From an uncultured Eubacteriales bacterium (GTDB taxonomy: Bacteria; Bacillota; Clostridia; Christensenellales; UBA1242), in contig URXM01000002.1 of the NCBI GenBank assembly GCA_900551855.1, positions 192,828-256,827 on the forward strand: 64,000 nt of DNA, in the 5' to 3' direction. The notes under the pieces are model-generated. The model was not told the origin of the DNA, ran no database searches, and worked only from the letters and a program-made list of their open reading frames with translations. Of this stretch, positions 2,706 to 21,489 are shown piece after piece; position 1 is the stretch's first letter, and each line of letters opens with the position of its first letter. The position numbers and the translations under genes were made by a program.

Positions 2706-2748
2706 AATTATAGGTTTAGTCAGGTCTAAATCAAGGAGAAATTGTATT

Positions 2749-5700
2749 ATGAAAAGAAAGTCAATTTTTTTCACCTTATTTGTTTTAATCTTTGGGTTCT
2801 GTGGGACTCTGAGTTATTTTAACAATCCTATAAATATCACAAATGCTGTCAGCCAAGATGCAAGTGTTTGGGACGGAGAGTTTGTTGAAAATGAAAGTGA
2901 ATTGACTGAGAGCGATTGGTATAATGAAAATGTAAACAATTATTATATCAGGAGTGCAGCTGGACTTTCTTATTTTGTTCACAGTGTAAATGATGGAACT
3001 GTTTACAAAAACAAAAACATATACCTTGATACAGATATTGACTTGGCAAATTATAATTGGACTCCTATTGGTAATGCTGTGAATATTTTCCAAGGATCAT
3101 TTTATGGACAGGGACATACAATTTACAATTTAGAAATAAATGATGCAACTTCTAGTTATGTTGGTTTCTTTGGAACTTTGACCGATTATTCAAAAGTTGA
3201 CAATTTGCATTTAAGAAATGTAAACATTGATTTGACCATTTCAAACAGTGATGATTATTATGTTGGAACTATGGTTGGATATTTTAACAACACTGGAAAT
3301 GTTGATAGAAGTTATAGCAATTCTTACATAACAAATTGTTCTGTTGAAGGGGAGATCAATATTTCTTCATCTGAATCAACACAAAACTTTATGGTTGGTG
3401 GACTTGCAGGGAGCATTAACAATGCAAGTGTAAGAACTTCAAAAACTGAAGTTAAAATAAACATTGATTCAGTCAATGCACAAAATTTGAGAGTCGGGGG
3501 TCTCACAGGATCTTCCGATTATTTGGTTTTGTCAGACTGTTATTATGATGGAGACATAGAGGTAAGTTCTACTACTGCATCAGGATACATGGGAGGATTG
3601 GTTGGATATTTAAGTGGTATAAGTGCCAACTATTCATCAACAATTGAAAATACATATAGCAAAGGCAAAATTGTTTTAAGCAACAATGGAAAAAGTTTTT
3701 ATATTGGTGGAATTGTTGGAAGAGTAAACAACGAATATTTTGTTATGAACAATTCTTACCATGTTGGAGATATAAAAACGGGCGACAATAACATTTATGG
3801 GACTAATTACATGAGTGGGTTGATAGGACAACTTCAAGCTTCTAGTTTTGCAAACACAAAGATGTTGAATTGTTTTTATATTGGCTCTTTGTCTGGAAAT
3901 AATTACAATCAAAATTATTTATATCCTGTTGACAAAAACTTGGGAGAATCTCAAAAACCAGAAGTTGGGGGATTGTACTTTGATGTTGATATGAAGTCAA
4001 CAGCAAAGGGAGATTTGGCTAATCAAATTATTAATTTGGACAGTCTCGCAAAAACAAAAGACTTTTATTTAAATGAGAGATATTGGGATTCTGAAAAGAG
4101 TTGGAACTTCTCTGATTCTTTCTCAAACTGGGATATTTCTTCAGGAATAAACGATGGATATCCATATTTGAAACAATTGAATAATATTGGAAATGCTAAT
4201 AATGACAGTGATTATTCTGCAGGAAGTAAATTGGAAGGAGAAGGAACTGCTGAGTCTCCATATTTGATCAAAACAGCTGGTGATTTGGGATATATGTCCT
4301 TTAATTTTCAAAGCAAAAAATATTATTCTCTTCAAAACAATATTGATTTGTCAGGCAGAACATGGCAACCAATAGGAACTTTATCTAATCCTTTCAATGG
4401 TGTTTTTGATGGAAATGGATACACTATTTATGGACTTACATGTTCTTTGCAAGAGAAGTTTGGATCTCATGGTTTGTTTGGTGTCACATCAAATGCAGTT
4501 ATAAAAAACTTGAAGATAAAAAATGTAAAATACATAAATGAAGGCACAAATAGTGGTTATATTGGGACTTTTATTGGATATGTAAAAGGTGACACATATT
4601 TGATAAATTGTGCTGACAACGAATATAGCCAAGCCGGGACCAAATTGTCTGATGGAAGTAATGTTTATTCAGTTGGAAGGGTTGACAGCGATGCGAATAT
4701 TTTTGTTTTCTATGGTACAAACTCAACAAATTCGTCAGGAAACTTAATTGAAAATAATATAGACACTTCAAACAATGGCGATTTTTATGGAAACATCAAT
4801 CTTTCAGGGACAAAAACAAGTACTGGAACTTTGGCTGATGTATATTATGGCTATGATTTAACAATAAATGGAAATGGTGGAAACTTTTATAATTCAAACA
4901 AAGTAAGTTATAAAGGCAAATATCATCTTCTTGTTATGCCAACAGGTGAAAATGCAAAGATTAAAAATATTGCATTGACATCAACTGGAAATGTCGCTAG
5001 TGAAGTGGTGAATGTTTCTAGCATGGACAGCACTTTTGGTGTTGGTCTTCCACAACTTTCTCATCTTTTTGGCACGACAGACACAATAATTAAAAAAGGT
5101 TTTAAAGCTGTTTCATTCAATTATACATTGTCAGGTGCAACTGACAGTGTTTTGTATAGCCTTTCTGACTCTCAAAAAACAGAAGTTTTGAATTTTGATA
5201 TAAATTATTCAAAGGCACCTTTGCATGGTGTAAATGTAAATTGGCAAGTTTATGGATATAATCCAAACAATCCAAATGAAGCAGACAAAGACAATGCTTA
5301 TCAAATAAAAGTTATTTACAACACTTACGAAAAAGAAGAGTTTGGGGCTACATCATATGACTATGATGCAAGTTCTGAAGTTCAAGTTGATGAAGATGGA
5401 AATGTTTATAAGATATTCTATTTGGAATATGATGCTTTTCTTTCTGATTATCCAGAAATTTTTGAAGTGCCAAGTTATAAAGACAAAAATGGCGTGCAAA
5501 AATTGTTAAGAAATGGAGATTTTGCTATTGAAGGTGTTTATCAAGAGGGTTATCCTTTTGCAAAAGAAATTTTGACTACCGAACCTGTAGATGGAGAAAA
5601 TTCTGCTGATGTTTACTACGCTTCAAGCACTCTTGCAAACAGTATATTGTCTGATGCATCAATTGTTGGTGACGTTTATTTGGCAAATTTATATGTAAAC

Positions 5701-8700
5701 TGGGAAGGTATTGAAAAGTTAGAAGATGGTCATGAATTTGATTTGACAATCAGTTTAAATCCTTTGGAAGGAACTGATGAGCAATCAAGCTTTGCAGGAA
5801 ACTTTGATATAAAAGATGCAATAACAAGCATAGAAGTTTATCAAGTACCAGATGCATCAAATCCTAATTTGGAAAAAGTTTATAGAGAATTTTCTGGTGA
5901 TTCTTTGATTGTAAACGACAACAAAGTTAAAGTAAATGTGACAATTACAACAACAAAATTGAGTGATACTACAGACAATTATTGGTATGTTGTAGTGACT
6001 CTTAAAAATGGGTTTATATATTCTGGAGACGGAACAAAAGATAAAAATTATAACGGAACAATAGACACTAACTTTGGTGTAGATTCTTCATCTGGTGTGA
6101 AAGGAGAATGGAGATTCTACAATTTGGTAAGCGATTACAACCTTACACTCGTTGTTTCTCGTGACATGAAAGAAAACGAACTTTCTATTGGAACGGGCGT
6201 TTATATGGGACTTACTCCTTTTGTGACGGGTTGGAACAAAGTTTCTGTAATTGGCCCAAATGGTGAAAAAGCTGACATATCTTCTCTTACAAACAATGAA
6301 TCTTTGAAAACTGTTTATCAAAATGGTGAAAACTTTGTTGGTTTTGACTTTATGAAAAACAAAATTTTAAGTTCTAGTGCCAGCTATGATGCCATTGATT
6401 TGACTTCAAATTATATTCTTACAGAAGGAAACAAAAAGAGCGTTTTGTTTGAGTATGAATTTGCTGGAGAGTCAAAATATTATTTATATGAATTTGTTGA
6501 AAACGACCAAAGTTATTCTTACCCACAAACTATTTATTTGTACACAAGTGATGCAAACAGACAAAAAACTGATATGGTTGTTCAATTGGACAGCAGTACA
6601 GAATTGACTTATAGACTTTCATATTATGCTTATACCAATTTTGGAATTATATATTCAACAGAAACTGATGCAACTATATTCAGTGTAGTTTCACAATTTA
6701 ACAGCTCAAGCATTGACAAAGTAAAAGATGGTGAGCAAAGAGAAGTTGATGTTATTATTCCTAATGGTGCAAACCCTTCAAAAATTTACATGGTTTTTGA
6801 AAGTATTATAAAAATAAATAATGGGGAAAGTATTGAAGCAACAACAAGATATTCTCAAGCTATCTTTAACTTTAATACAAAATACTTAGCTCAAGATCAA
6901 GATTTGTTGGATGAAAATGGTGATGTAAATTATGTAGACATTGAAAAAAATTCTCCTACTATTTATTCAGTTGTTAAAGACGCTTTGGGGCAATGGAATT
7001 TGACTGGAGAATTAAAGAGTAAAATTTACAGTGTAGATGTTAATTCTGGAGAAATTGTTTTTGCAGTGCAATCTACTGATTTTTACAAGTTCTTTGTAAA
7101 GAGAGGTGGCACTGACAATATTACATTGTTTAACAATACTGGGAGTACTGCAAATCTCAATTTGGAAAGCTGCAACATAAAAATCGCAGTTTCTGATGAA
7201 AATGATCAAGTAATTTCTGATTATGAAGAAAGATTTAATCTTAACAATCAAGAATATTTAACAATCTCAGCCTCATCAACTTATGTAGAGAGTAAATGGA
7301 TACAAAGTGAAAATGGTGGCTTGGAGTATCAAAACGAATTCTTTGTTATTATATTGAATTACAGTGCGGGAAATGGTGGGTTGCAAGCAGGTAATTACAC
7401 TCTTGATGTTGTCTGCACCGATGTTTTCTACAACATGAATTATTCTACAAAATTTGTAAATGCAGATGTTGATGTAAGTCAATTGAAAGATGTAAAACTC
7501 TTGGAAAATGAAGAGAGTTCTGATATCGAAACTGTTGTGACAGCAAATGGAGAAAAGTACGAACAAAACAATTCTTCAATCAAATTTGACAATGAAATAA
7601 CTGTTTCAACTTATATGCAAACAAATAATGCTTATGAATTTTGGGGCTGGTATATTAAAGGATCAAATTATTCAAGATTTGTGGCGAAAGGGAATTCTTT
7701 GCCATCATCTCCATCAGCTTCAACTCCTTCAACTTTGAGTTTTGAATATGGTGACATGTATTTTTCAACAAGTGGTACAAACTTGAATGAACTTGGATTT
7801 TTGGATGAAAACAACGCTTACAATATTACAATCTATGCAATTTTCCAAAGAAAACAGACAACAATAGACCTTTCTCAAAGAGTTATTATTGAAAACAGAA
7901 ATGGTGAACAAACAGAATATACAAGCTATGCTATTAACTTGAATTTAAGTTTTGCTTTGAGACTTAATGATGGTTCTTCTGCACAATCTATTGTTTACAA
8001 TTATACTTCAAACACAAATTCAGAAGAACAATTCTTGTCTAATTTCAATTTTGTTATGACAGGAACTGACTCTACAGGTTATTACATTTCTGGTTATAGA
8101 TTGTTTGATGTTTATGGTGATGTGGTAGAGGTAAATCTCAATGGACAAAGTGAAAAAATTGAATATATTGGAAACAAATATGACAACAATGTATCAATGA
8201 ATTTTGACATATATAAACAAGTAAAGACCTTGATGGAACAGGGCGAGACAAGCAAATATCAAGAATATACCATTACGCCTATTATAAGACAGAAATCTGC
8301 AAATATCACTTTCCATTCAGGAACTGGTTCTAGTGGCTATGGTGACACCAAAAATGGACATGTTTTTGATGTTAGTGGTGAAAATGAAACAACCGATACA
8401 TACTTCACTACAACTGAAATATATTTCGACACCACAATATACTTAAATTCACCATTAGATGGAAATATAAACAGCAACGATACGACTGAATCTGTTATTG
8501 TTGAAAATTTGTTTAGCAGTAGAACAGGTTATGTAAAGAAGAGCAACAATTATTGGGTTTCTACAATTGGAGAACAACTCAATGGTATGACATTGCAATT
8601 GTCAACTTCTTATTTTAAAGATTCTCAAACATTGAAAGAATTGCATTTTTATGTAGTTTGGGAAGCTAGAAATTACAACATTAGATTTATGCCTAATGGT

Positions 8701-11700
8701 GGAATTTTTGATGGTATTGATTCTATAAGCATTACTGCAACTTATGATTCAAATGAAGTTGTTTACAACAATATAAAATATTACTCTACAAGTTTAGACA
8801 ATATTACGGCAATCAAAGACAAATTGCAATATATTGGTTATGAAAACTCTGGATGGAGTTTGGATGCAGATAACAACATTCTCGGTCGTTTGGTATTTGA
8901 TGCAAATTTGGGTCTGATTTCAGGGCAAGAGTATTCTTTGTTTGATGAAAAAGGAAATTATATTTGCCCAAGTGATTCAATTGTGTATGCCGTTTGGGTA
9001 GAATGCCCTTATACAATCAAAATCATGTTGAATGGTGCAAATAGTTATGATATACACGGGCAAAAAACAAGCATTCCAAATGATGAACAAAAAGAATTTG
9101 GACTTGAAATTGATATTAGATATGACAGCACATTTGCTGAAATGTTTTTCGAAAACGATGAAGAAAACAAGATAAAAATCAGTGAAATAGTTTTGGAAAG
9201 AGAAGGATACAAGTTTAATGGCTTCTACGCTATTAGTGGAAATTTAAGACAAAATATCGATGATTATACAGTTTTCACTACAAACATTATTTCTTGTTCT
9301 CAAACTATGACTGAAGATATTGTTTTGACTTTGTATGCAAATTGGACTTTTGATATTTCTTATCTTTCATTAAGTTTGAATCAAAGCAATTTGCCAAGTT
9401 TGGTATATAATGCAGGCCAACAAACAATTTATTTGGCAGATTACTTTAAACTTGGTTATCAAGCAAATGGTTATGTTGTAAGTTTGGATGAAAATGGTCA
9501 AGACATGACAATTACTCTTTCACCAAACATGAATTCTTCTATATTGTTAAGTCTTTCTTCAGAGAAAGCAACAATTGATAATTATTCAGATTTGTCATTT
9601 AAGGTAAGAAATGTAGGAAATTATTCTGTAAGCTTAAGCATAACAATCACTGATGATGCAAGTTATTTGAATTTGGGTAATGTGTATAACGAAAACTGTA
9701 TGTTCTACATTGAAGTGACCAAGGCAGATTTGGATAGCTCGGTTAGTGATGAAATGTATGTAGAAAATGTAAAACGAATTATGGAACCTTTCATGAATGT
9801 AGAGTTTAATACGAAATTGCAAAGTTGTTCTACTCTTGATGGTGTGACAAATTTGATGAAGAGTGAAGATTCTACAATTACAGGCACTGCTGGCGAAGAA
9901 CTTAACAACAGTGTTTATGAATACATTATGTTTAAATACTACATGCTTCTAAATTCAAATGTTGGAGAGACTTACAAGACTTATAAAGAATGGACTTATG
10001 CTGATTACTTAAATCATATAAGTGATGAGAATAACGCAACTTCAGTTTCAAATATTGTGTCATCACTTTCTCACTTTGATTTCTATGACTATACAATTTC
10101 TGACAGCAGTATGAATATTGATGGGTACGACAATTTGGAAATTGTTTCTGATGCGGTTCAAAATGTTGGTCTTGAATTGGCTATAGACAAAATTGTTATA
10201 TCTTCTAATACCGTTTCTAATCTTTCTCCTAACAACAGTTATGAAATGAGAGTTTACTTGAAAAATGTTGTATCAAGTGTAGATAGTCTTGCAAATTACA
10301 ATGTGCAATACGATGCAAATGGAGATGCTTTCATCACAGCAGGTACTGCATTCTTGTTGCCACAAACTATTTTGGTTCAAAACTTGGAAAGCACAAAATC
10401 TGCATATTTTGAAGCTAATGTAGAGAACAAAGAAGTAGCTTGGGCAGGAAACAGAGAATCTTTGGAATATGGAAGCAACACTTATTATTTGATTGAAAAC
10501 AACCTCTATCTCTCAGCAGAACTTTACACTTCTTCAAGTGGAGATTTGTTGACTGATACAATTTATTCATTTACTAACAAAGAAAACTATTTATTCTTTG
10601 ATAATGTTTCTATCATCTTAAAGACCGAAAATTCTGGTGAAGTATCATATACAAACATTTCATCATACTTTAAGCCTATTATGGCGGAAGATGATGTGTT
10701 TACAATCATGAATACAAATGGTGTCGCAAACTTAACTGTTACAGCAAATTATCTTACAAACAAAGATGGTATGATATATTTTGAAAAAGTAGAAGATATC
10801 ATGGCTTCTGAACTTTTGAGAATTACTCGTGTTTATTACAACATAGATGGCACTGAAAAAGATGTTTATGATGCAGATGGATTGGAAGAGACATCTTTCT
10901 CTGATAATGGAGTGTTGGTTTATGAAATAACAGAGAACAATTCAAATTCTGTTTCTATTTTTGTTAGTCCAACAGTTACAAAAGTTGTGTTCTCTGCTAC
11001 ATCTTCTTCAATCTCTGATTATATAGGATTGTATAAGTGGGTTGATTCCCCAATTTATAGTGTTGATGGAACCATGGACACAAAAGGCAGTTTGACTGTT
11101 GATATGTCTTTGATAGAAAAATCAGATGAGGGCATGACAAATATAAATTATTATGCAGTTTATACCGATTTGGTTCTTGTAAAATACAATTTAAATTTCC
11201 CAAGTAGTTATAATTTAAGTTCAAGCCAAACAGCTACAATGAAACTTGGAGAAACCACTGCAAATGATCTTGCTATACCTAGCGAAAGCGGATTTGTTTT
11301 GGCAAGTCTTAAAGCAAAAACTCCTACTGGCGAGACTTTGGATTACACAGAAATATTCACAGGTGAAGATAGTGGAAATGGAAGAGTTTATGTAGGTATT
11401 ACTCCAGAGACTAAATTTGCGATTGTGACTCTTGAAGCAAAATGGAATGTTGAAGACATTGCTTACAATCAAATTTTGACAAGTTATAGAGCTGCAGTTG
11501 AATCATTTACTTCTTTGACAGTTGATGATATTGTTGCAATATCAAATAAAAATACCACTTTGTATGAATACACTTATGCATGGTATTTCAATAACCAAAA
11601 AATATCCGAAGGCCAAATAATGAAATTGGAAAACAATGGAAGCTATGATGAAAGCGGAAATTATAAACTCGTTGTCAATGCAACATTGAATTCAGAATTT

Positions 11701-14700
11701 GTTATTTCTTTGGAAGATGCTTCAAAAACTTCTACAAGCGTTGAAATCAATTTCACTTTGGAATTTATGCGCAATATCATAGATAAGATTACTTTGCCAG
11801 AACCAGAAAGCGTTGTTGTGACTTATGATGGCAGAGAACATATATCAGATTGGAGTGTAAATGTTGATATTTATATTTACAATCCAAGCAAAGACGCTTA
11901 TGAAGAAACTGTCACAACACAACAATTGCATTATGTCACTACAGGGTCTATTTACTTTAAAGTTTACTTCAATGGTGGAGAAGTAAGCTCAATGAAAAAT
12001 GCCGGTGAATATAGAATAAATATTTGTATTGATGAAGGATCTTATGACATATCTGGTGTTGACTCTTCAAATTTGGAATTTGTTTACACGATCAATGCTT
12101 TAAGCGTAGATTTAAGTGAGTATGATTTTAATATGTCTAAACAATTCAACTCTGTTGAGCCTTCTTTGACCAAAGAAATTTATTTGACAAATGAAAATGT
12201 ACCTTTGCAACTCGAAAGAGACGCTGGCGAAGATGTTGGATATTACAACATTTATCTTAAAGACAACTTGCAAGAATATAAGATGAATTATACTTTCACT
12301 TATGGCGATGTTGTATTGTTTGAAAATGGTGCTTTGACTGCAGAAGCAAAGACCACAGCAATCGGAACTTTTGCAATAACAAAAGGTGGAACATTGAGAT
12401 TGTCTTATGAAGTCACAGCACTCAATCCTATGGCTGTTGAAGCAAATTATAGCAATTTGGGATACAGCTTGAAGTTGACAGAAGATTTCAGATTGCAAAT
12501 TTATAATGGTGATGTTGTCTATAAAGAATTTTATTTGAACTTGTTTGATTTGGCTACAAGTGAAAATATTTCTTCAGATGTAATTTTAAACATCTTAAGA
12601 ACAAAAATTTCTGATATCCAACCAACATTCTTTAATACAGAAAGTTATCAAACAGCTTACAACAGCATGACTTATACATATAGTTTTGCGTTGGGAGATG
12701 AGATATCTAAGTATTATACAAACATAGAATTTGAGGCTGGTTATACATTTACAATCAAAACAATTACAGTTGATGTTTCTGGCTTTAAGTTGCAAAAAAC
12801 ATATGATGGAACAACAAACATCTATCTTGACTTAACAGGGAAGACAATTGACTTAGATAGTTATAGTGGAGTTTATATTGCAGGAACATTCTTGACAGCG
12901 CATGCAGGAACAAATGTTAGAGTTGATTTGTCATTGCAAAGAAAAGACTCTACAGAAAACCTTTCAAACTATGAACTTACTGCAAGTTATGTTGTGGGAG
13001 CTATAAACAAACTTGATGGCACTATGTCATTTACTATGAGCAAAACTGAGTTTGCTTATGGTGAGATTTCTCTCAACAACTTCTCAAGTTTTATTGGAAA
13101 TTATATTGTTATGAATTCTGACAACCAACTTGTGACAAATTTGTTGGTAGATGGATATTATACTATCTCATACAGTTTGAAAAATCCTTCAACAAATGAA
13201 AAAGGGTTCTTGTATAAAGGCAACTACACAATTGGTGTAAATGCCGCGTTCCAAGATTTTAATATGACGATAAACGAACCTTCATTTGAAGTTTTGGCTT
13301 TGCAATATGAAGTTCAAATTCCTGAAAATTATATTCAAATTTCTGTTTTGGATAAAGTTCAAGAATATTATGAAAACGCAATTTCAATTCAAAGCACTGG
13401 CGACACAATAAATTTAAGATTGGCACCAGAAGGTTTGACAGCAGGACAAAATGCAAATACAGGAAGCTACAATTTGTTGTTGGTTGAAGATACCTTCTTA
13501 AATGGAAGTGTTGTCGTTTCTATCAATGAAAACAACAAAGGCTTGCAAGTTTTGTTTGCTACAGAAACTGTTTATGTAAGAATTGATGATACTTCAATTT
13601 TGACAAATTCTTATAGTGGACAAAATTACAGTGTATCAGGTGATGTTTCAAAAATTTTGACAGTTTCAAATGGTACGACGAATTTAACAAGTGCATTGAC
13701 CTTCTTCTTAAAAGTAGATGAAGGCGGAGAAGTTGTAGAAAAAACTCTTGGTGATGGAGAAATATCATTTGCAACTCTTTCAATTGGATTTGAAGATTCA
13801 ATTACCGAAGTATCTAAGGCAGGACAATATAAGTTGAGTATTCTTGCACAATGCAACGAATATGTAAATGTTGTTTTTGCAGAAGATTATTATCTTAATA
13901 TTGAAAAATTGACAATTGACATAGCTCAATTTACATTTGAAAAAACATACGACGGAATTGGCAGTTATATCATTTCTGACTTCAACGAAAAAATTGATGG
14001 TGATGATGTTTCAATTTTAGTTCAATTTGATTCTGCTGTTTCTGGTGAAGGTAAAAATGTAAACTTGTACCTTAGCGGAACAGACATGAACAATTATGAG
14101 TTGTCAAGTGCGACAAGTACAGGTTCAATCAACAAAGCAGAAGCAATTGTTGAACTTGTAAAAACAGATTTGGTTTATGGTGAAGTTTCTTTGACTCAAC
14201 CATTGTCTTACACGGTCAAGGCAGGCACAACAAACTTGTTGCCTTCTCAATATTCTTTGACTTTGGAAATTGAAAATGCAAATTATAGTGCGTCAGGATA
14301 TTTGACTGTTGGAACATATACGGTGGCTTTGAGTGCTCAATCTTCAACAAACTATGATTTGATTTTGAACACAACACAAATTCAAGTTTCTGCGTACGAT
14401 TTGACTTTGCAATTCAATACTGATGGAGAAATCTATTATGAATTTAATTCTCCAGAAGCAAATTCTGATCAGTTCACTTATATCTATATAACACCACTTT
14501 ATGAAAGCATCGAAATCTTGATGACAAGAGAAAGTGGAAAAGATATTGGATATTACAAAATATTAAGTGGAACTTCAAATGATACAAATTATTATGTTTT
14601 GAAAGTGGACGACAAGAGTGAACTTGGTGCATTTAGAATTTCTCAAGCAAAAGAAAGATTATATCTTCTTTTGAGTGATGAAGAAATAGTCACAGCTTCT

Positions 14701-17700
14701 TCTATCGCAGACACTGCAACTATTAAGTATGACGGAATATTGTATGACACAGTATCTGTTGAAGAAACAGAGGAAGATTCAGGACTTTACAGACTTGTAT
14801 TTACAAGTTCTACAACTCCAACTGCAGAACAACAATTTGACTTAAACTTCTATACTTATGATTCTACAAGTCAATCATATACAAAGACAGATGTAACTGT
14901 TTATAATCTTAAAACAACAATAAAATTCTTGAATCCTACAATTGTAAAGGATGTAGGAACTTATGAAATTTATGCAAGCGGAACATCATCTTCAAATTAT
15001 GAAGTTAAGATGGGTAAAAACGGAGCAATTTACAGTTTCTATTTGAAGATTGAAAAGAAAGAACTCTATTTCTTGCAATCAGAACAAAGTAAAGTATTTG
15101 ACAATAAAGATGCTGTTTTTGAATATTCAGATGCAAATGACATGTTGACAGGCATTGTTGCAGGAGAAAAGATAAGTCTTAGCATGAGATTTACACAAAA
15201 TGGCGAAGTGGTAAAATATGTTGGTGTAAATTATGATGTAGAAGCCGAAATTTTTGGTGACACAATTTCAAACTACAATTTGAATTTGACCGATGAAGAA
15301 GGCACAGATTTGAATGCAACAATCTATCGTGCTGAAATTGTGTTTGTAGTAAATTCTCAAAACTATACTTATGGTGAAAACTACGAGTTGCAATTCAAAT
15401 ATCAAACAGATGTTGATTTGACTGGTTATGATATGTCAAGAATTAGCATGCAATTGACAGTGCCAGATAAAGAATTGTATCTCTCTACAAGTGGGGCTTT
15501 AAAAGTCGGCGAATATAATATGATCATGTTGTTTAGTGCCAATGATTTCTCAATAGGCGGGTACATCATCAACAATCAAGAACAAGACGACTTATTGGCA
15601 AAACTTACAATTTCTCCAAGACAACTTCAACTTGTTGAAAAAGATATAAGTTTGCAAGAAGTGTTCACAAAAACTTATGATGGAAACAACAATGTTAAAA
15701 TTGCCGATGATGACGGAGCTATATTGTTTGGCTTGTCTGGAATTCATCAAAACACAGAAGGAGTAGCTGATTCTGTTCAAGTATTGTCAGCACACTATGC
15801 AAGTGAAAATGTTGGTCAAGCAATTCAAGTAAGTTTTGAATTGTCAGGCGAAGACAGTGCAAACTACACTATTTCTCCTTGGATGTATGGCATTATTAAA
15901 GCGATTATTGTTGGGCTTGAATTTGATTATCGTGCAGAAGGCAGTAATGTGACTTCAAATGTTGATGACAATCATCTTCCTACTTTGTCACAACTTTCAT
16001 TCCCATTTATGTCAACATCATATTTGACTTCAAACTCTGCTTCAAGCTCTACAAATTCAATCAAGAATTTCCCTACTTCTTTGACTGGAAGAACAGGTTA
16101 TGCATTCTTGAATTGGACTATGGATTTTGAAAATATTGAAAACGCTTCAGCAGAATTAAGTTATCTTGAAGATGTTGTGACAAAATTGGGACTTGAACAT
16201 AGTTATGCAAACTCAACATATTCAATTGTTGTTGACAACGGCGAAAAGACAGTAAGATTCTTGAACGAATTGTTGTTGGATGAAAACAATGTCCTTGGAT
16301 ATTACTATAAAACAGCAACAGATTTGAAGTTTAAATTCAATGCAAATTGGGATACAAACAAATACAGAATCACAATTATGCTTGCCGATGAAAATGGCAA
16401 GAGTGCAAGTTATGGAAGTGTTGAGATTGATGATGGAAATCCTGACACAGAAAACACAACTGTCACAACAAATTATTTAGGTGAGTTTGATTATGATAGT
16501 TCAATCACATTGAGACCTACAGCAAACGCACACTGCTATTATGTAGGCTATTACTCTTCAGATGGCAAAAAATATATAGGAACAGAACCATTTATCTCCA
16601 TTACTAGAGAAGGAGACATGGAAGTGTTTACTATTACAAACATTAGACAAACATACAACTTGGTTGTTAGATTTGCTGCACAAAAAGTTAATGTTGTCTT
16701 TGATCTTAGTGAATATAGCGACGCAACAGTAAATTCAAAGGATTTTGTTGATATCGGAAATTCAATGTATCAATGGACCACAGATTATTTAACTTTGGAA
16801 AGTTTGTATATTTCAGATTTGCCAGAAGTGACTAGACTTGGTTATAATGTTGTAAGTTTAAGCACTTCAACGACAACAATCTCAAAAGATAATTTTGAAA
16901 ATACAAAAATAATTTCTTTGATACCTGATTCAAACGAAAATGCAGTCACTCTTACTTTGACTCCAAACTTTGAAGCTGTTGGAGTTGTGGTGACTCTTGA
17001 TTATGGATACGACAGCATAAGACAAGATATTGTTGTACCTTATGGTCAAGCATATCAAACTTCTAATGATTGGGTTGAAACTCCATTAAGAGAAGGATAC
17101 ACATTTGATGGTTGGTACAATTCTTTAGGCACAAGAGTTTATGGTGGAGATATTCTTTCTACTACCGAAACTCACACTTTGACAGCTCACTGGACAATAA
17201 ACAAATATAGTCTTGAATTGATTGCAGAACATGCAACTATTTCAGACGCAAATGTTGTTTTTGCTTCTAGTGGAAACAGCTATACTGCAAGCGAAATTGA
17301 ATATGGATATCGTGTGACATTTAAAGTTGTTGCTGACAATGGATATGAAATTTCTTCTGCTTGGTCAGCTGGTTTTGATGTTGTTATAAATGAAGATAAA
17401 ACTGCAAATATAACATTTACAATGCCTGCCGATAATGTGACCTATCAATTGCCAATTATCGCAATTACAAACACAGTGACAATTCAAGGCGAACATCTTG
17501 GAGAAATCCATGCTTATGATGTGACTGAAGAAGAAACAGAAATTGCTGTAGCAAACAATCAATTTGAGATTGCAACAGGAAGAGTGTTTAAGATTGTTGT
17601 TTCTGCAGAAATTGGTTATGTTGTTGCTGACAGAATTGATGGTGGCGACGGGTTAACAATTGACAAAGCTGTTGAAAATGGAGTATTGACTGCCACAATT

Positions 17701-20700
17701 GAGGGAGTAGACAGCGACACAACATTGAATCTCTTTACTGAAGAAAGCAGAAACAAGATTTCAATTTTGTTTGATGATGAAGATGTTGTTGAAACAATAG
17801 AAATTGATGGAAAAACTTACAATTCTGTAAGTGAACTTCCTGAGATAGAAGTGAACACAAATGCTATCTTAAGTTTCTATGTCAAGTTTAAACATGGATA
17901 CGGACTTGGCTCTTATGTTTGTGAAGAGTTTACTGTATCTTACGACTTTATAGAAGATGGTGCTTATATTGACAACTATTTGTTTGAAGTTTCAGATATC
18001 AGCACAGACGGAACTATTTTGATAAATTCTGCTTTGGCAAAATATACTTTGAATTTGGAAGTTATTTCTTACAACGAAAACAAAGAGCAAGTTGATATAG
18101 CCGGAAATATCGCTCTTGCAAATGGTTTGACCTCAATAGAAGCAGAATACAATTCTACAGTTCTTATCACTTACCAAGTTGCAGAACTTTACAGTTTTGC
18201 AGGTTGGAGCAAAGATGGAATAAACATTTTCAGCACAGAAGCAAGATTGAATTATACAATCACTCAAGATGAAACAATTTATGCAATATTCTCAACATTG
18301 AGATTTAACATTGATTTTGGAACATACAATTACTACACAATTTATGATGAATACAATGATCCAAAAATGACAGAAACAATTTATACAGAAATTTCAGGTG
18401 CAAGATATTTTGATGCTGATTCTGGAAAAGAAATTTCTGGAATAGAACTCTATTATGGAGCAAACAAAAACATCAAATATCAAGTGCCTAATGGCTATAT
18501 GTATTATGGATATGGTTATAGAGATGGTCAAGACTTTGTTTATTTAAAAATCGAAGAAAGTGTTGACAGAGAAGTTGCAATAAATATTTCTAGTTTGCTT
18601 TTAAATCAAGACAACTTAAATGTGAAGATATACATTGTTGTCAAAGCTTACAGTTTGACTGTTGAGTTTGAGACAAAAATTGACATAGATGGTACTAGAG
18701 AAGAAGATGTTGATGTAGGATACATCTCATTGCAAGATTCAAGTGGAAATGATGTAAATCAATATGGTTATGTTGATGGCACAAGAGTTCATTATTCTCC
18801 AGATGATTTTGAAAATGGACAAGTTTTGAGCAATAAGAATTTTGAAGTTGTTGCTTATACAAATGATGTTATTTATTTGAAAGTAAAGATTTTGAAGCAA
18901 GGATATAAATTCTCTTCTATCGGGGCAAACTTGCAAGATATTTACATTTCAAAAGTGACAGAAAATAATGAATATCTATTATTTGAAATTAGCAATTTGG
19001 TTGGTGGAACAGATTCAATTTACATTGAAGTTTTGTTTAAACCAATCATAAACGTAATCAATTTGTCATTTGTAAACAATGATTTGACCGTTGATGGTGG
19101 TGCATTTAATTTCAACATTTCAGAAGACAACAAAAACAAAGTTTGGACTTCTGGAAGAGAATATTCTTCTGTTGTTGTTTCTGCTTATACTGACAGTTAT
19201 TTTGAAGTTGTTGCTCTTATTCGTGCAGGATATCATGTAAACGGGTTTGACCTTCAAATAAGCGACAGTGCAGGCATTATAGTTCCTGAAAGCGTAACTT
19301 ATGAAGCATTGAAGGTTGCTGATTCTGGTTATACTGGAAAAATCACATTTATGGTTGCAAACTATCTAGGTGTGTCATCAATAACTATCGGAGTCACTCC
19401 AATGACTTACACCGTTCAACTTATGGAAGACACAAATGTGCTTGCAATTATTGATAATGTAAACTTTAACTCTGCTCTCAACTTGACAGAATACAATGCA
19501 GCAAACATCACTATTGTTGATGAAAGAGTTTACTTCCAAAGCGGAAGACTTAAGGTTGATTTGCAAAAAGCTCAACATAATTTTGAAGGATACTTCACAT
19601 ATCAAAACGGAGCTGGTGTGCAATACATCAACTCTCAAGGCAATCCTGTAAATACTTGGCAAGAAAGTGGTTATGTTTTGAATACTCTTACTTCAAAATA
19701 CGAACTTAGCGAAAATGCCATTCTTGATCCAGACACAGGAAAGATAACTATAAAACTTTACTTATATTGGTCTTATCTTAAAACAAGAATCAATTTTGAG
19801 TTTGTTCCTGATATCAGAACAAACTACACTGCACAAGATATGGTCAGTGGTGTTGACTTCTCAAATTCTTGGTTCTATGAAACAGCTCCAATGTATATTG
19901 AAGTTTCGTTCAACACAGACATAAGAATTGTTGCTCCTACAATTGATGGATATCAATTCTATAAATTTGTGATCAGTCAAAAGAATTCAGAAGGAACTTG
20001 GCTTACTGATGTCGTTTCATTCTCAAATGATATTCCTTGGTCAACAAACGAATATGATCGAATTGTTGAATGCAGAATTCAAGTTGTTTATTTTGCAAAA
20101 GTTGAAGTCACATTGTTTGGTGGTGAAGGTACATTCAACATCTATCAAGAGTCAAGTGACACTCAAGCAAAATTGTTGTTGCAAGATGGTTATGTTGACA
20201 CAACAAAAGAATTTACTATTGAGGCTGTCCCAAATGATGGATATGCATTCTTGCGTTGGGTAAATTCAACTACTGGTCAATCAACTTTCAACAAAACTAT
20301 GAGTCTGACAATTTCAAGAAAGACAAACCTTGTTATGAACTTGCAAGGGGAAACAGTCACATTAAACTTTGAAGACTATGATACAACTTATGGGCAAATC
20401 ACCAATTTGAATGTTTTGTCTTTGGATAACAGCTACAACAGCTATAGACTGGGTGGCTACAGTGGTGATGATTTCTTGAAGATCTTGACAGAAGTTGATG
20501 TTAAAGTCGGAGATGAGTTGACATTTATTGTCAGTGTCGATTTCGGTTTTGGTGTGGTTTGGAACAGAAAGGATATCACATTTAAGGAATACACAGGAAA
20601 TATGTATTACTTCACAATGAATGTTCCTACAGAAATTGCAGGACAGACAATTGATATTATTCCAACCTTTGAAGATGAGATTTTGGCAGTTTACATTTCA

Positions 20701-21489
20701 AGAAGTTTTGCAGAAGATGAAATTGATGAAAATGTAATTGATTACAACAATGTAAATATGGCTGGCTATGTGACCTACAACGGACAGGCAATAAACAATA
20801 TAAGCTTTGAAGAAGGAAAAGAAGTTAGAATTGTTACTGTCACAAATCCAAGATATGAAATTGACAATATTACAATTCAAAACTACGACAATGTGTTTGA
20901 CAATATGGGTGATTTCTTTACCGAGGAAGGAGTAATTGTCTTGACTCCAGAATTTATTGAATTTAACAATATTGTCGGAACAATTGAAATTTCTATTGAA
21001 TACAAGCGTGTGCTTTGGGAAGATGAAATCGTTGTAAGCGAATTTGAGGGATCAGGAACTTCCAGAGATCCATATCAAATCAAAACAGTTGAGGACTTGA
21101 TTTTGATGATGAATTATGTAAACAACGGAACTTACAACCCAAACGGAATTAAATATAAAGACAGTTTCTTTATCTTAATGAACGACTTGGAATTGAATGA
21201 AAAATTCTGGACACCAATCGGTACAGACAGCAATGCATTTAATGGTTATTTCAATTTCAACAAACATAATATTAGCGGTGTATATACTGCTTACTTCTAC
21301 AATCCTGTTTCCTATAACGGTCTCTTTGGAGTTTTGGGAACAAATGCAAAGATTGTACAAAATGAAGAATCGTTGTGGTATGTATATTTGATTATTGGTT
21401 TGGTTGTTTTGATTGTTCTTCTTCTTATAATCTTGATTTTGACAAACAAGAAGCGTAAGAAGAGAAGAAAAGAACTCTCAACAAAATAA
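2749..21489 (+). CDS. giant (6,246 aa) mosaic cell-surface protein with an N-terminal signal peptide and a C-terminal transmembrane tail anchor
   Basis: This is an 18,741-nt uninterrupted ORF in an AT-rich genome. The N-terminus MKRKSIFFTLFVLIFGFCGTL has signal-peptide character. GLUG-type motifs are present (GGLAG, GGLTG, GGLVG, GGIVG). Many modules have the MBG-like pattern K-x-YDG...NY-x-L...G-x-I. Several Listeria-Bacteroides-type repeats occur, e.g. REGYTFDGWYNSLG...HTLTAHWT. The C-terminus is WYVYLIIGLVVLIVLLLIILILTNKKRKKRRKELSTK. Confidence 0.9.
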   Translation: MKRKSIFFTLFVLIFGFCGTLSYFNNPINITNAVSQDASVWDGEFVENESELTESDWYNENVNNYYIRSAAGLSYFVHSVNDGTVYKNKNIYLDTDIDLANYNWTPIGNAVNIFQGSFYGQGHTIYNLEINDATSSYVGFFGTLTDYSKVDNLHLRNVNIDLTISNSDDYYVGTMVGYFNNTGNVDRSYSNSYITNCSVEGEINISSSESTQNFMVGGLAGSINNASVRTSKTEVKINIDSVNAQNLRVGGLTGSSDYLVLSDCYYDGDIEVSSTTASGYMGGLVGYLSGISANYSSTIENTYSKGKIVLSNNGKSFYIGGIVGRVNNEYFVMNNSYHVGDIKTGDNNIYGTNYMSGLIGQLQASSFANTKMLNCFYIGSLSGNNYNQNYLYPVDKNLGESQKPEVGGLYFDVDMKSTAKGDLANQIINLDSLAKTKDFYLNERYWDSEKSWNFSDSFSNWDISSGINDGYPYLKQLNNIGNANNDSDYSAGSKLEGEGTAESPYLIKTAGDLGYMSFNFQSKKYYSLQNNIDLSGRTWQPIGTLSNPFNGVFDGNGYTIYGLTCSLQEKFGSHGLFGVTSNAVIKNLKIKNVKYINEGTNSGYIGTFIGYVKGDTYLINCADNEYSQAGTKLSDGSNVYSVGRVDSDANIFVFYGTNSTNSSGNLIENNIDTSNNGDFYGNINLSGTKTSTGTLADVYYGYDLTINGNGGNFYNSNKVSYKGKYHLLVMPTGENAKIKNIALTSTGNVASEVVNVSSMDSTFGVGLPQLSHLFGTTDTIIKKGFKAVSFNYTLSGATDSVLYSLSDSQKTEVLNFDINYSKAPLHGVNVNWQVYGYNPNNPNEADKDNAYQIKVIYNTYEKEEFGATSYDYDASSEVQVDEDGNVYKIFYLEYDAFLSDYPEIFEVPSYKDKNGVQKLLRNGDFAIEGVYQEGYPFAKEILTTEPVDGENSADVYYASSTLANSILSDASIVGDVYLANLYVNWEGIEKLEDGHEFDLTISLNPLEGTDEQSSFAGNFDIKDAITSIEVYQVPDASNPNLEKVYREFSGDSLIVNDNKVKVNVTITTTKLSDTTDNYWYVVVTLKNGFIYSGDGTKDKNYNGTIDTNFGVDSSSGVKGEWRFYNLVSDYNLTLVVSRDMKENELSIGTGVYMGLTPFVTGWNKVSVIGPNGEKADISSLTNNESLKTVYQNGENFVGFDFMKNKILSSSASYDAIDLTSNYILTEGNKKSVLFEYEFAGESKYYLYEFVENDQSYSYPQTIYLYTSDANRQKTDMVVQLDSSTELTYRLSYYAYTNFGIIYSTETDATIFSVVSQFNSSSIDKVKDGEQREVDVIIPNGANPSKIYMVFESIIKINNGESIEATTRYSQAIFNFNTKYLAQDQDLLDENGDVNYVDIEKNSPTIYSVVKDALGQWNLTGELKSKIYSVDVNSGEIVFAVQSTDFYKFFVKRGGTDNITLFNNTGSTANLNLESCNIKIAVSDENDQVISDYEERFNLNNQEYLTISASSTYVESKWIQSENGGLEYQNEFFVIILNYSAGNGGLQAGNYTLDVVCTDVFYNMNYSTKFVNADVDVSQLKDVKLLENEESSDIETVVTANGEKYEQNNSSIKFDNEITVSTYMQTNNAYEFWGWYIKGSNYSRFVAKGNSLPSSPSASTPSTLSFEYGDMYFSTSGTNLNELGFLDENNAYNITIYAIFQRKQTTIDLSQRVIIENRNGEQTEYTSYAINLNLSFALRLNDGSSAQSIVYNYTSNTNSEEQFLSNFNFVMTGTDSTGYYISGYRLFDVYGDVVEVNLNGQSEKIEYIGNKYDNNVSMNFDIYKQVKTLMEQGETSKYQEYTITPIIRQKSANITFHSGTGSSGYGDTKNGHVFDVSGENETTDTYFTTTEIYFDTTIYLNSPLDGNINSNDTTESVIVENLFSSRTGYVKKSNNYWVSTIGEQLNGMTLQLSTSYFKDSQTLKELHFYVVWEARNYNIRFMPNGGIFDGIDSISITATYDSNEVVYNNIKYYSTSLDNITAIKDKLQYIGYENSGWSLDADNNILGRLVFDANLGLISGQEYSLFDEKGNYICPSDSIVYAVWVECPYTIKIMLNGANSYDIHGQKTSIPNDEQKEFGLEIDIRYDSTFAEMFFENDEENKIKISEIVLEREGYKFNGFYAISGNLRQNIDDYTVFTTNIISCSQTMTEDIVLTLYANWTFDISYLSLSLNQSNLPSLVYNAGQQTIYLADYFKLGYQANGYVVSLDENGQDMTITLSPNMNSSILLSLSSEKATIDNYSDLSFKVRNVGNYSVSLSITITDDASYLNLGNVYNENCMFYIEVTKADLDSSVSDEMYVENVKRIMEPFMNVEFNTKLQSCSTLDGVTNLMKSEDSTITGTAGEELNNSVYEYIMFKYYMLLNSNVGETYKTYKEWTYADYLNHISDENNATSVSNIVSSLSHFDFYDYTISDSSMNIDGYDNLEIVSDAVQNVGLELAIDKIVISSNTVSNLSPNNSYEMRVYLKNVVSSVDSLANYNVQYDANGDAFITAGTAFLLPQTILVQNLESTKSAYFEANVENKEVAWAGNRESLEYGSNTYYLIENNLYLSAELYTSSSGDLLTDTIYSFTNKENYLFFDNVSIILKTENSGEVSYTNISSYFKPIMAEDDVFTIMNTNGVANLTVTANYLTNKDGMIYFEKVEDIMASELLRITRVYYNIDGTEKDVYDADGLEETSFSDNGVLVYEITENNSNSVSIFVSPTVTKVVFSATSSSISDYIGLYKWVDSPIYSVDGTMDTKGSLTVDMSLIEKSDEGMTNINYYAVYTDLVLVKYNLNFPSSYNLSSSQTATMKLGETTANDLAIPSESGFVLASLKAKTPTGETLDYTEIFTGEDSGNGRVYVGITPETKFAIVTLEAKWNVEDIAYNQILTSYRAAVESFTSLTVDDIVAISNKNTTLYEYTYAWYFNNQKISEGQIMKLENNGSYDESGNYKLVVNATLNSEFVISLEDASKTSTSVEINFTLEFMRNIIDKITLPEPESVVVTYDGREHISDWSVNVDIYIYNPSKDAYEETVTTQQLHYVTTGSIYFKVYFNGGEVSSMKNAGEYRINICIDEGSYDISGVDSSNLEFVYTINALSVDLSEYDFNMSKQFNSVEPSLTKEIYLTNENVPLQLERDAGEDVGYYNIYLKDNLQEYKMNYTFTYGDVVLFENGALTAEAKTTAIGTFAITKGGTLRLSYEVTALNPMAVEANYSNLGYSLKLTEDFRLQIYNGDVVYKEFYLNLFDLATSENISSDVILNILRTKISDIQPTFFNTESYQTAYNSMTYTYSFALGDEISKYYTNIEFEAGYTFTIKTITVDVSGFKLQKTYDGTTNIYLDLTGKTIDLDSYSGVYIAGTFLTAHAGTNVRVDLSLQRKDSTENLSNYELTASYVVGAINKLDGTMSFTMSKTEFAYGEISLNNFSSFIGNYIVMNSDNQLVTNLLVDGYYTISYSLKNPSTNEKGFLYKGNYTIGVNAAFQDFNMTINEPSFEVLALQYEVQIPENYIQISVLDKVQEYYENAISIQSTGDTINLRLAPEGLTAGQNANTGSYNLLLVEDTFLNGSVVVSINENNKGLQVLFATETVYVRIDDTSILTNSYSGQNYSVSGDVSKILTVSNGTTNLTSALTFFLKVDEGGEVVEKTLGDGEISFATLSIGFEDSITEVSKAGQYKLSILAQCNEYVNVVFAEDYYLNIEKLTIDIAQFTFEKTYDGIGSYIISDFNEKIDGDDVSILVQFDSAVSGEGKNVNLYLSGTDMNNYELSSATSTGSINKAEAIVELVKTDLVYGEVSLTQPLSYTVKAGTTNLLPSQYSLTLEIENANYSASGYLTVGTYTVALSAQSSTNYDLILNTTQIQVSAYDLTLQFNTDGEIYYEFNSPEANSDQFTYIYITPLYESIEILMTRESGKDIGYYKILSGTSNDTNYYVLKVDDKSELGAFRISQAKERLYLLLSDEEIVTASSIADTATIKYDGILYDTVSVEETEEDSGLYRLVFTSSTTPTAEQQFDLNFYTYDSTSQSYTKTDVTVYNLKTTIKFLNPTIVKDVGTYEIYASGTSSSNYEVKMGKNGAIYSFYLKIEKKELYFLQSEQSKVFDNKDAVFEYSDANDMLTGIVAGEKISLSMRFTQNGEVVKYVGVNYDVEAEIFGDTISNYNLNLTDEEGTDLNATIYRAEIVFVVNSQNYTYGENYELQFKYQTDVDLTGYDMSRISMQLTVPDKELYLSTSGALKVGEYNMIMLFSANDFSIGGYIINNQEQDDLLAKLTISPRQLQLVEKDISLQEVFTKTYDGNNNVKIADDDGAILFGLSGIHQNTEGVADSVQVLSAHYASENVGQAIQVSFELSGEDSANYTISPWMYGIIKAIIVGLEFDYRAEGSNVTSNVDDNHLPTLSQLSFPFMSTSYLTSNSASSSTNSIKNFPTSLTGRTGYAFLNWTMDFENIENASAELSYLEDVVTKLGLEHSYANSTYSIVVDNGEKTVRFLNELLLDENNVLGYYYKTATDLKFKFNANWDTNKYRITIMLADENGKSASYGSVEIDDGNPDTENTTVTTNYLGEFDYDSSITLRPTANAHCYYVGYYSSDGKKYIGTEPFISITREGDMEVFTITNIRQTYNLVVRFAAQKVNVVFDLSEYSDATVNSKDFVDIGNSMYQWTTDYLTLESLYISDLPEVTRLGYNVVSLSTSTTTISKDNFENTKIISLIPDSNENAVTLTLTPNFEAVGVVVTLDYGYDSIRQDIVVPYGQAYQTSNDWVETPLREGYTFDGWYNSLGTRVYGGDILSTTETHTLTAHWTINKYSLELIAEHATISDANVVFASSGNSYTASEIEYGYRVTFKVVADNGYEISSAWSAGFDVVINEDKTANITFTMPADNVTYQLPIIAITNTVTIQGEHLGEIHAYDVTEEETEIAVANNQFEIATGRVFKIVVSAEIGYVVADRIDGGDGLTIDKAVENGVLTATIEGVDSDTTLNLFTEESRNKISILFDDEDVVETIEIDGKTYNSVSELPEIEVNTNAILSFYVKFKHGYGLGSYVCEEFTVSYDFIEDGAYIDNYLFEVSDISTDGTILINSALAKYTLNLEVISYNENKEQVDIAGNIALANGLTSIEAEYNSTVLITYQVAELYSFAGWSKDGINIFSTEARLNYTITQDETIYAIFSTLRFNIDFGTYNYYTIYDEYNDPKMTETIYTEISGARYFDADSGKEISGIELYYGANKNIKYQVPNGYMYYGYGYRDGQDFVYLKIEESVDREVAINISSLLLNQDNLNVKIYIVVKAYSLTVEFETKIDIDGTREEDVDVGYISLQDSSGNDVNQYGYVDGTRVHYSPDDFENGQVLSNKNFEVVAYTNDVIYLKVKILKQGYKFSSIGANLQDIYISKVTENNEYLLFEISNLVGGTDSIYIEVLFKPIINVINLSFVNNDLTVDGGAFNFNISEDNKNKVWTSGREYSSVVVSAYTDSYFEVVALIRAGYHVNGFDLQISDSAGIIVPESVTYEALKVADSGYTGKITFMVANYLGVSSITIGVTPMTYTVQLMEDTNVLAIIDNVNFNSALNLTEYNAANITIVDERVYFQSGRLKVDLQKAQHNFEGYFTYQNGAGVQYINSQGNPVNTWQESGYVLNTLTSKYELSENAILDPDTGKITIKLYLYWSYLKTRINFEFVPDIRTNYTAQDMVSGVDFSNSWFYETAPMYIEVSFNTDIRIVAPTIDGYQFYKFVISQKNSEGTWLTDVVSFSNDIPWSTNEYDRIVECRIQVVYFAKVEVTLFGGEGTFNIYQESSDTQAKLLLQDGYVDTTKEFTIEAVPNDGYAFLRWVNSTTGQSTFNKTMSLTISRKTNLVMNLQGETVTLNFEDYDTTYGQITNLNVLSLDNSYNSYRLGGYSGDDFLKILTEVDVKVGDELTFIVSVDFGFGVVWNRKDITFKEYTGNMYYFTMNVPTEIAGQTIDIIPTFEDEILAVYISRSFAEDEIDENVIDYNNVNMAGYVTYNGQAINNISFEEGKEVRIVTVTNPRYEIDNITIQNYDNVFDNMGDFFTEEGVIVLTPEFIEFNNIVGTIEISIEYKRVLWEDEIVVSEFEGSGTSRDPYQIKTVEDLILMMNYVNNGTYNPNGIKYKDSFFILMNDLELNEKFWTPIGTDSNAFNGYFNFNKHNISGVYTAYFYNPVSYNGLFGVLGTNAKIVQNEESLWYVYLIIGLVVLIVLLLIILILTNKKRKKRRKELSTK
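3046..3840 (+). repeat. head module plus GLUG-motif repeat region (probable beta-helix) inside the giant ORF
   Basis: NWTPIGNAVNIFQGSFYGQGHTIYNL is followed by VGFFG, MVGGLAGS, RVGGLTGS, YMGGLVGY, YIGGIVGR and MSGLIGQ at roughly regular spacing. Confidence 0.5.
11788..15925 (+). repeat. array of MBG-like (YDG ... NY) beta-sandwich modules inside the giant ORF
   Basis: Recurrent module starts: VVVTYDGREH, KLQKTYDGTTN, TFEKTYDGIGS, ATIKYDGILY, FTKTYDGNNN. Recurrent module ends: LSNYELTASYVVGAINK, MNNYELSSATSTGSINKAEA, ISNYNLNLT...ATIYRAEI, SANYTISPWMYGIIKA. Confidence 0.5.

Follow-up and report, generated by a model that had tools for sequence, protein, structure and literature searches.

Very large surface proteins have been described in several bacteria, and two of these systems come close in overall design to the gene examined here. 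Apilactobacillus kunkeei, a host-associated Firmicute with a small genome, encodes Giant1-5, extracellular proteins of several thousand residues that occupy several percent of the genome and in which an N-terminal beta-solenoid head sits on a long rod, attached to the envelope at the C-terminus (PMC12863079). Ebh, a protein on the megadalton scale, has a signal peptide and a single C-terminal membrane anchor instead of an LPXTG motif, and its function is still debated between adhesion and an envelope or steric role (PMC4856396). Among beta-rich proteins, GhpA of Aureispira forms a fibre of long immunoglobulin (Ig)-like strings that is used for catching other cells, IgA1-protease/Zmp proteins contain a GLUG beta-helix, and some Firmicute surface proteins carry InlB B-repeat, MBG and YDG domains. 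We analysed a 64,000-nucleotide (nt) stretch of DNA from an uncultured Eubacteriales bacterium (assembly GCA_900551855.1, contig URXM01000002.1, positions 192,828 to 256,827; "the window" throughout), in which a single gene of 18,741 nt encodes a protein of 6,246 amino acids (aa), here called the giant protein. The evidence points to a real and selected gene whose product is probably a membrane-anchored surface fibre of fixed length.

The giant protein is homologous to none of Giant1-5, Ebh or GhpA, despite recalling all three in design. Giant1-5 have a rod of alpha-helical repeats and an SH3b-like wall-binding domain, whereas the giant protein has a beta-sandwich stalk that ends in a beta-helix cap and a transmembrane helix; no sequence homology to Giant1-5 and no SH3 match was detected in it. 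Ebh consists of closely similar helical repeats of the FIVAR/GA type, whereas the giant protein is beta-rich with internal copies less than 43% identical; no Pfam family is shared, and the resemblance is one of design only. GhpA (9flp, 9g8b, 9flv, 9fls) is the best structural match of aa 2250-3150, but at a TM-score of about 0.1 and an identity of about 9%, and it belongs to another phylum with other secretion and anchoring routes. The GLUG beta-helix (3n6z, 7uvk, 7uvl; PF07581) is homologous to the first head of the giant protein and shares its GG[LIV]xG rungs; unlike the proteases, the giant protein carries this module three times, the third reduced to a cap at the membrane. Copies of the InlB B-repeat, MBG and YDG families (PF09479, PF18998, PF18676, PF18657) exceed Pfam thresholds, yet long parts of the protein match no family. 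It also differs from sortase-anchored LPXTG proteins and from microbial surface components recognizing adhesive matrix molecules (MSCRAMMs) in its mode of attachment. Its distinctive features are an all-beta, non-repetitive stalk of fixed length, a triple beta-helix cap, a shared module of cap, transmembrane helix and tail, and the setting in a genome of about 1 Mb.

The gene is one uninterrupted open reading frame (ORF), as the original prediction had claimed, with no internal stop under translation table 11. The window has a G+C content of 32.5%, and from its base composition a stop is expected at a frequency of 0.082 per codon, or about one in 12 codons. The probability of reading 6,246 codons without a stop is then about 1e-233. 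The other five frames inside the gene contain no ORF longer than 128 aa, and the G+C content of the gene matches both its surroundings and the rest of the genome.

Independent assemblies argue that this frame is neither a chimeric or collapsed assembly nor a decaying pseudogene that happens to be open. The identical protein is recorded in assemblies from NCBI, Logan and ENA. Eight different full-length variants from independent assemblies fall in its 90% cluster, all exactly 6,246 aa long and at least 99.2% identical, with zero indels. We found no tandem or long dispersed DNA repeats in the gene, and self-comparison of the protein gave a best internal similarity of 30-42%, all below 43%, so an assembler would have had nothing to collapse. 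Assembly collapse thus appears unlikely. One same-species assembly in the cluster speaks for an artefact: there the gene is split into products of 2,374 and 3,848 aa on one 63,105-bp contig (P0043, P0041). The split, at window positions ~9870-9945 (aa ~2374-2398), may stem from an error in sequencing, from a pseudogene at strain level or from a slippage site.

Orthologues extend the same frame across the genus, and with more than 30 species keeping it open under selection the artefactual reading is, on these sequence data, effectively refuted. In a database search, 32 additional orthologue clusters (5,821-6,423 aa) aligned over their full length, at identities from 77% down to 27%. In a MAFFT alignment, 88-100% of reference positions were matched in every orthologue. 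Of 100 species sampled in the genus, 40 carry an orthologue (30 of the 73 good-quality genomes); where the contig is long enough the frames span 5,853-6,446 aa, and no stop falls inside any match. For one unsaturated pair (dS 0.39), the overall ratio of nonsynonymous to synonymous substitution rates (dN/dS) is 0.096, and individual 500-codon blocks range from 0.06 to 0.18. Because it is low in every block, all 6,000-plus codons are under purifying selection. The locus is a genuine gene, present as a single copy and under selection. In public records, an orthologue is named only as "InlB B-repeat-containing protein".

The gene also keeps its place in the chromosome. The order gltX-(trpS)-giant-uppP-P-type ATPase-holB is retained in 19 of 20 orthologous loci, as is the adjacency of the giant gene and uppP. 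In five genomes of non-carrier genus members uppP and gltX lie on separate contigs, so that a search for an empty trpS-uppP site offers no comparison there. The retained gene order marks a stable chromosomal resident of a sub-clade, probably inherited vertically, and not an island. The most distant genus match (G212:C18), a 6,418-aa ORF with 27% identity, has a hydrophilic tail rich in lysine, glutamate and asparagine without a transmembrane helix, and the gltX, trpS and uppP neighbours are absent. It appears to be a paralogue or a differently attached relative.

Signals for expression lie where they were predicted, with one weak element. The 271-nt AT-rich intergenic spacer 3' of a class-I tRNA-synthetase gene contains both a putative promoter and the ribosome-binding site AAGGAGA, the latter 8 nt upstream of the ATG. 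The original prediction called both plausible; the ribosome-binding site and the perfect -10 hexamer bear this out, whereas the -35 hexamer matches at only 3 of 6 positions and a consensus promoter scan did not list the site. The prediction that uppP follows closely without a terminator was borne out in full: the downstream gene is a BacA-family uppP, and the 52-nt gap holds no detectable terminator-like or promoter-like site. Just 5' of uppP, at 21505-21525, a TTGACT and a perfect TATAAT are spaced by only 9 nt. This spacing is not workable as a standard promoter, so uppP probably relies on read-through from the giant gene, and we consider the two genes probably co-transcribed. An Rfam scan of window positions 1-26000 returned no matching element.

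The sequence of the product shows the features of an extracellular protein with a type-I membrane anchor. Hydropathy located only two hydrophobic segments in the 6,246 aa, at aa 5-24 and aa 6206-6236 (maximum 3.6). The first is part of a predicted signal peptide of the signal peptidase I (SPase-I) type. A test for the lipobox [LVI][ASTVI][GAS]C was negative, the sequence being FGFC with Phe at -1; Cys18 is not conserved and is absent in orthologues such as P0014, whereas the cleavage site ...A|VS at aa 33/34 is. The second segment is a predicted transmembrane helix followed by a basic tail. By the positive-inside rule, the tail would be cytoplasmic and the remainder of the protein extracellular. 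Most orthologues end in the motif [KR]n-R-E-E-L-x-K-[RK] after a lysine/arginine cluster, which hints at more than a plain stop-transfer signal and at a cytoplasmic binding partner.

Sortase appears to play no part in this attachment. The giant protein contains no LPXTG-type motif (LP.[TSA][GAN]), and the 99.9%-complete genome yielded no match to sortase (PF04203) although control families did match. Among NCBIfam sorting-signal models we found only a sub-threshold match to GG_III-CTERM (15.5 bits against a cut-off of 22). The genome does encode peptidoglycan genes (two penicillin-binding proteins and four Mur ligases), so a protein anchored in the membrane must cross the peptidoglycan layer.

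The N-terminus is predicted to fold into two beta-helix heads. Pfam GLUG (PF07581) passes narrowly at aa 278-309, with 20.9 bits against a cut-off of 20.5. The rungs GGLAG, GGLTG, GGLVG and GGIVG are readily recognised, and glycines G217/G218/G221, G250/G254 and G282/G283/G286 are invariant in the orthologues. A single-sequence search of aa 1-700 against the PDB found no match, and a profile was needed: that of 19 orthologues matched the IgA1-protease beta-helix in 3n6z_A (4.3e-15), 7uvl_P (5e-14) and 7uvk_A (3.9e-12). The HH self-match of head 1 spans aa 139-382. A third cap directly precedes the transmembrane helix and ends after its first GLFG rung. The whole protein contains no HExxH or HxxEH motif and tiled Pfam scans returned no Peptidase_M26 match, so head 1 is not a protease of the IgA1 type. 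The beta-helix cap module also occurs in three other, mid-sized proteins of the same genome: a 1,599-aa ORF (C6), which has it twice, and ORFs of 820 aa (C3) and 1,273 aa (C2:159601).

Between heads and membrane lies a long string of beta-rich domains, of which the named repeat families (InlB-type, MBG and YDG) make up well under a quarter of the protein. MBG_2 was found at aa 3130-3187 and 4112-4182 and YDG at aa 4304-4376, scoring 30.5 bits (PF18676) and 50.3 bits (PF18657) against a cut-off of 25 each; this array includes a super-repeat of about 380 aa (aa 3323-3523 versus 3705-3888). Nearer the membrane, Flg_new (PF09479) at aa 4763-4814 scores 29.6 bits against a cut-off of 27, and Flg_new_2 (PF18998) scores 32.8 and 26.9 bits at aa 4840-4899 and 5815-5856 against 23.6, with a weak copy at aa 5134-5182. 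TIGR02543 scores 28.9 bits against 20.95. In profile-profile comparison, aa 1995-2088 and 2121-2203 match, with 97% probability, the Flg_new copy that Pfam defines. A profile of the C-terminal 687 aa found no sequence relative in the PDB. The domain copies have diverged too far to be counted, with only 2-4 per class reaching at least 90% probability in iterated hidden Markov model (HMM) and profile-profile searches. A figure of about 60 domains in the stalk is an estimate from length.

About 2,100 aa match no family at all. They form two blocks, aa 640-1839 and aa 2250-3150, in which Pfam recognised nothing, whether in the giant protein or in any of 19 orthologues. We modelled aa 2250-3150 with AlphaFold2 (AF2) on 20-sequence alignments, and the models of the two blocks together cover 2,100 aa. 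The predicted local distance difference test (pLDDT) score of aa 2250-3150 is 88.0, and its best Foldseek matches are GhpA 9flp_A (1.2e-9), cadherins, Dscam and the Sap S-layer protein. A search of 1.84 billion protein representatives with its profile brought up only some 40 full-length giants, in which the block occupies the same relative place. Positions 1-660 of this profile (aa 2250-2910) are restricted to the giant orthologue group, and only the last two domains have relatives elsewhere. The block at aa 640-1839 is modelled at a pLDDT of 75.9 as mostly beta, with weak Foldseek matches to the Gram-positive pilins T-antigen and SpaD, to SdrD and YwfG, to fimbrial adhesins of Bacteroides and to the peptide-binding domain of MpIBP. 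Foldseek TM-scores are low throughout, and for such flexible multi-domain strings the matches indicate the kind of fold and not the family. Both blocks are new as sequence families, but the folds predicted for them are of ordinary kinds: Ig-like or pilin-like sandwiches, and a single 7-helix bundle.

Most of the architecture agrees with the original prediction. Its mosaic of signal peptide, GLUG region, MBG/YDG modules, Listeria-Bacteroides repeats and transmembrane tail was recovered element by element with Pfam, profile and hydropathy searches, and the tiled HMM check that it proposed did find surface-protein domains (GLUG, MBG_2, YDG, Flg_new and Flg_new_2). The stretches it described as lacking any nameable motif likewise lack Pfam matches, and the fibre-like surface protein it inferred fits the predicted strings of beta-sandwiches and their nearest structural neighbours. 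Its suggestion that the unassigned segments are novel stands at the level of sequence, whereas novel folds are not supported by the models. Table 1 collects the coordinates of all features.

Table 1. Features of the giant gene and its flanks (window coordinates)
Feature	Position	Strand	Basis or detail
Putative promoter and ribosome-binding site	2676..2740	+	TTGCTT, 18-nt spacer, TATAAT 2700-2705; AAGGAGA 2734-2740; read from the sequence
Whole coding sequence, 6,246 codons plus stop	2749..21489	+	ORF scan; collinear orthologues; dN/dS 0.096
Predicted signal peptide, aa 1-33 (MKRK, hydrophobic core, ...ITNA|VSQD), SPase-I type	2749..2847	+	Hydropathy peak aa 5-24; A33 invariant in 20 orthologues
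Head 1, predicted right-handed beta-helix with GLUG rungs, aa ~44-450	2878..4098	+	Pfam Glug aa 278-309; profile match to IgA1-protease beta-helix
Head 2, predicted second beta-helix cap plus first rungs, aa ~493-650	4225..4698	+	Self-BLAST/profile matches to aa 62-178 and aa 6096-6205
Variable distal block, aa 640-1839, about a dozen beta-rich domains	4666..8265	+	Alignment, AF2, Foldseek
First Listeria-Bacteroides (Flg_new)-like repeat cluster, aa ~1950-2260	8596..9528	+	Profile-profile and window-profile matches
Conserved family-specific block, aa 2250-3150	9496..12198	+	Beta-sandwich, 7-helix bundle, ~7-8 beta-sandwich domains (AF2)
7-helix bundle, aa ~2334-2439	9748-10065	+	AF2 model
MBG_2/YDG array, aa ~3030-4380	11836..15888	+	Pfam and internal matches
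Membrane-proximal stalk, aa ~4450-6095, Flg_new/Flg_new_2 and unassigned beta-rich domains	16096..21033	+	Pfam, TIGR02543
Third, truncated beta-helix cap, aa 6096-6205	21034..21363	+	Profile matches to heads 1 and 2
Predicted transmembrane helix, aa 6209-6232, and cytoplasmic basic tail NKKRKKRRKELSTK, aa 6233-6246	21373..21486	+	Hydropathy; W6210, R6240 invariant
uppP/bacA	21542..22303	+	Pfam BacA 3.1e-66; 52 nt downstream of giant gene

Conservation is highest near the membrane and lowest in the distal block behind the heads. Mean identity among orthologues peaks at 0.63-0.68 over aa 5600-5800 (0.68 at aa 5701-5800) and reaches 0.60 at aa 6101-6200. The membrane-proximal stalk is the best-conserved third, with a gap fraction of at most 0.03, and indels are nearly absent from aa 2500 onward. 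Head 2 is also among the most conserved stretches (0.63 at aa 501-600). The stretch from aa 600 to 1800 is the least conserved and the richest in indels, with identities of 0.22-0.30 and gap fractions of 0.13-0.28. Such a drop from the membrane end to aa 600-1800 is expected if the distal part contacts a variable ligand. Within the species, 140 variable sites are spread evenly along the protein.

The C-terminal end of the giant protein is a module shared across the family. We searched 200 genomes of the family with its last 1,146 aa and found matches in 56; beyond close orthologues only the last ~165 aa match. This module sits at the C-terminus of other giant ORFs of 1,963-10,364 aa that are otherwise unrelated. 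Twenty aligned giant ends from other species and genera share the motif G-x-G-T-x-x-N-P-Y-x-I ... L ... N ... Y-x-L ... [IL]-x-[LF] ... F-W-x-P-I-G-T-x-x-N-P-F-x-G ... G-[LV]-F-G-Y, followed by the transmembrane helix and then a basic cluster. No Pfam or NCBIfam model covers the unit of cap, helix and tail.

The genome invests heavily in proteins of this size. Eight ORFs longer than 2,000 aa (12,439; 6,693; 6,265; 4,150; 3,750; 3,569; 2,873 and 2,194) occupy about 126 kb, or ~11.6% of the genome. When 300-aa tiles were compared by phmmer with the remaining giants of this genome, hardly any similarity emerged, so the giants are not recent paralogues. The 12,439-aa frame, which lies outside the window (C2:30084-67401, minus strand), has a similar C-terminal transmembrane helix plus lysine/arginine tail. 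Inside the window, two convergent genes of 1,424 aa (48383-52657, plus strand) and 2,870 aa (52869-61481, minus strand) likewise encode C-terminal transmembrane helices with basic tails; neither has a Pfam match.

We consider it fairly probable that the giant protein is a membrane-anchored surface fibre that serves a partner-dependent bacterium as a tether or adhesin of fixed length. It would be exported by Sec through its N-terminal signal peptide and retained by the single C-terminal transmembrane helix, with the basic tail in the cytoplasm, and this mode of tethering would suit an organism without a sortase. Some 6,170 residues would then lie outside the cell. Outward from the membrane, the order would be a short beta-helix cap, a stalk of rigidly conserved length that combines some 60 beta-sandwich domains diverged from one another (Flg_new, MBG/YDG and family-specific Ig-like) with one helical bundle, the faster-evolving pilin-like or adhesin-like block, and the two GLUG heads at the far tip. 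The stalk might carry block and heads through the peptidoglycan and far past it, over perhaps 0.2-0.3 um as estimated from the number and size of the domains. There they could bind the surface of a partner, whether another microbe, host mucus or epithelium. Partner binding would suit a bacterium unable to make its own building blocks.

Several observations weigh against this proposal, and some of them fit equally well with its main rival, an envelope-structural or steric protein, a brush or spacer like staphylococcal Ebh with no specific ligand. Such a protein might set envelope properties, hold off phages, complement-like factors or cells, or organise the wall. Its length, constant within a few percent across species and exact within the species, and the uniform purifying selection are as compatible with a structural or spacer role as with a tether. 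Heads and variable block are no more polymorphic within the species than the stalk, which is not what strong ligand-driven or immune-driven diversification should produce. No recognised ligand-binding domain (lectin, carbohydrate-binding module or MSCRAMM trench) was identified by sequence, and the structural matches, at TM-scores of about 0.1, are generic to strings of domains. The 60 of 100 sampled genus species without a detectable orthologue indicate that the gene is not indispensable for the lifestyle. A steric role also gains from the conserved and probably co-transcribed uppP, a wall-carrier recycling enzyme, and from the precedent of Ebh itself, a C-terminally membrane-anchored protein of ~1.1 MDa linked to cell size, complement resistance and steric anti-clumping (PMC4856396). 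However, two beta-helix heads and a distal block that evolves faster between species resemble a business end, the structural neighbours are mostly adhesins and pilins, and the absence of FIVAR, GA or DUF1542 matches leaves no sequence relation to Ebh modules. We regard the steric role as possible but rather unlikely.

With an artefactual gene essentially excluded, the other reading to weigh is a surface enzyme or effector, IgA1-protease-like, glycan-degrading or a carrier of a contact-dependent toxin, for which the fibre would be a delivery arm. The homology of the head to the IgA1-protease beta-helix lends this idea some substance, as do the 7-helix bundle and several domains without an assigned function. 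Beta-helices are also common in polysaccharide lyases and hydrolases. However, besides the missing peptidase domain and metal-site motifs, none of the 6,246 aa falls within a match to a catalytic family of Pfam or NCBIfam, the C-terminus is a membrane anchor and not a toxin domain, and the protein contains only 33 histidines and 18 cysteines. An enzymatic or effector role is unlikely, and we hold it distinctly improbable. We retain the tether or adhesin as the best explanation, while noting that "adhesin", already part of the original prediction, is inferred.

What is known of the organism fits a life in contact with partners. The assembly comprises 1,085,029 bp in 8 contigs and is 99.9% complete; no match to bacterial small-subunit rRNA was found in it, as is usual for a metagenome-assembled genome. 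All 200 sampled family genomes measure 0.6-1.6 Mb. Orthologue P0014 carries the NCBI label "Candidatus Caccovivens sp.", and Ca. Caccovivens corresponds to GTDB UBA11517 in family UBA1242, order Christensenellales (PMC8035907). Published work portrays UBA1242 as lacking amino-acid, nucleotide and lipid biosynthesis, with incomplete glycolysis and no standard transporters, and as probably an obligate, partner-dependent symbiont or parasite; that account leaves giant proteins unmentioned and refers only to "hypothetical membrane-bound proteins" for partner contact (PMC12306168). A bolder extension, which we offer tentatively and think doubtful as a whole, is that UBA1242-type bacteria are obligate episymbionts and the giant protein a dedicated host-cell tether, a Gram-positive counterpart of grappling-hook or SPEARE-type proteins, with the unit of cap, transmembrane helix and [KR]n-REEL-x-K serving as a new sorting or anchoring module that replaces sortase display and is read by further machinery.

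The giant protein offers a concrete candidate for the attachment apparatus of uncultured gut Clostridia, probably UBA1242, that are widespread in animal guts: it is conserved, of fixed length, encoded by a single-copy gene and equipped with defined heads. It also adds ~2,100 aa of domains that are predicted to fold confidently and lie outside Pfam. One gene taking 1.7% of a 1.085-Mb genome, and eight ORFs longer than 2,000 aa taking about 11.6%, represent a very large outlay for a reduced genome. The C-terminal anchor module may be used to list surface giants across the whole lineage.

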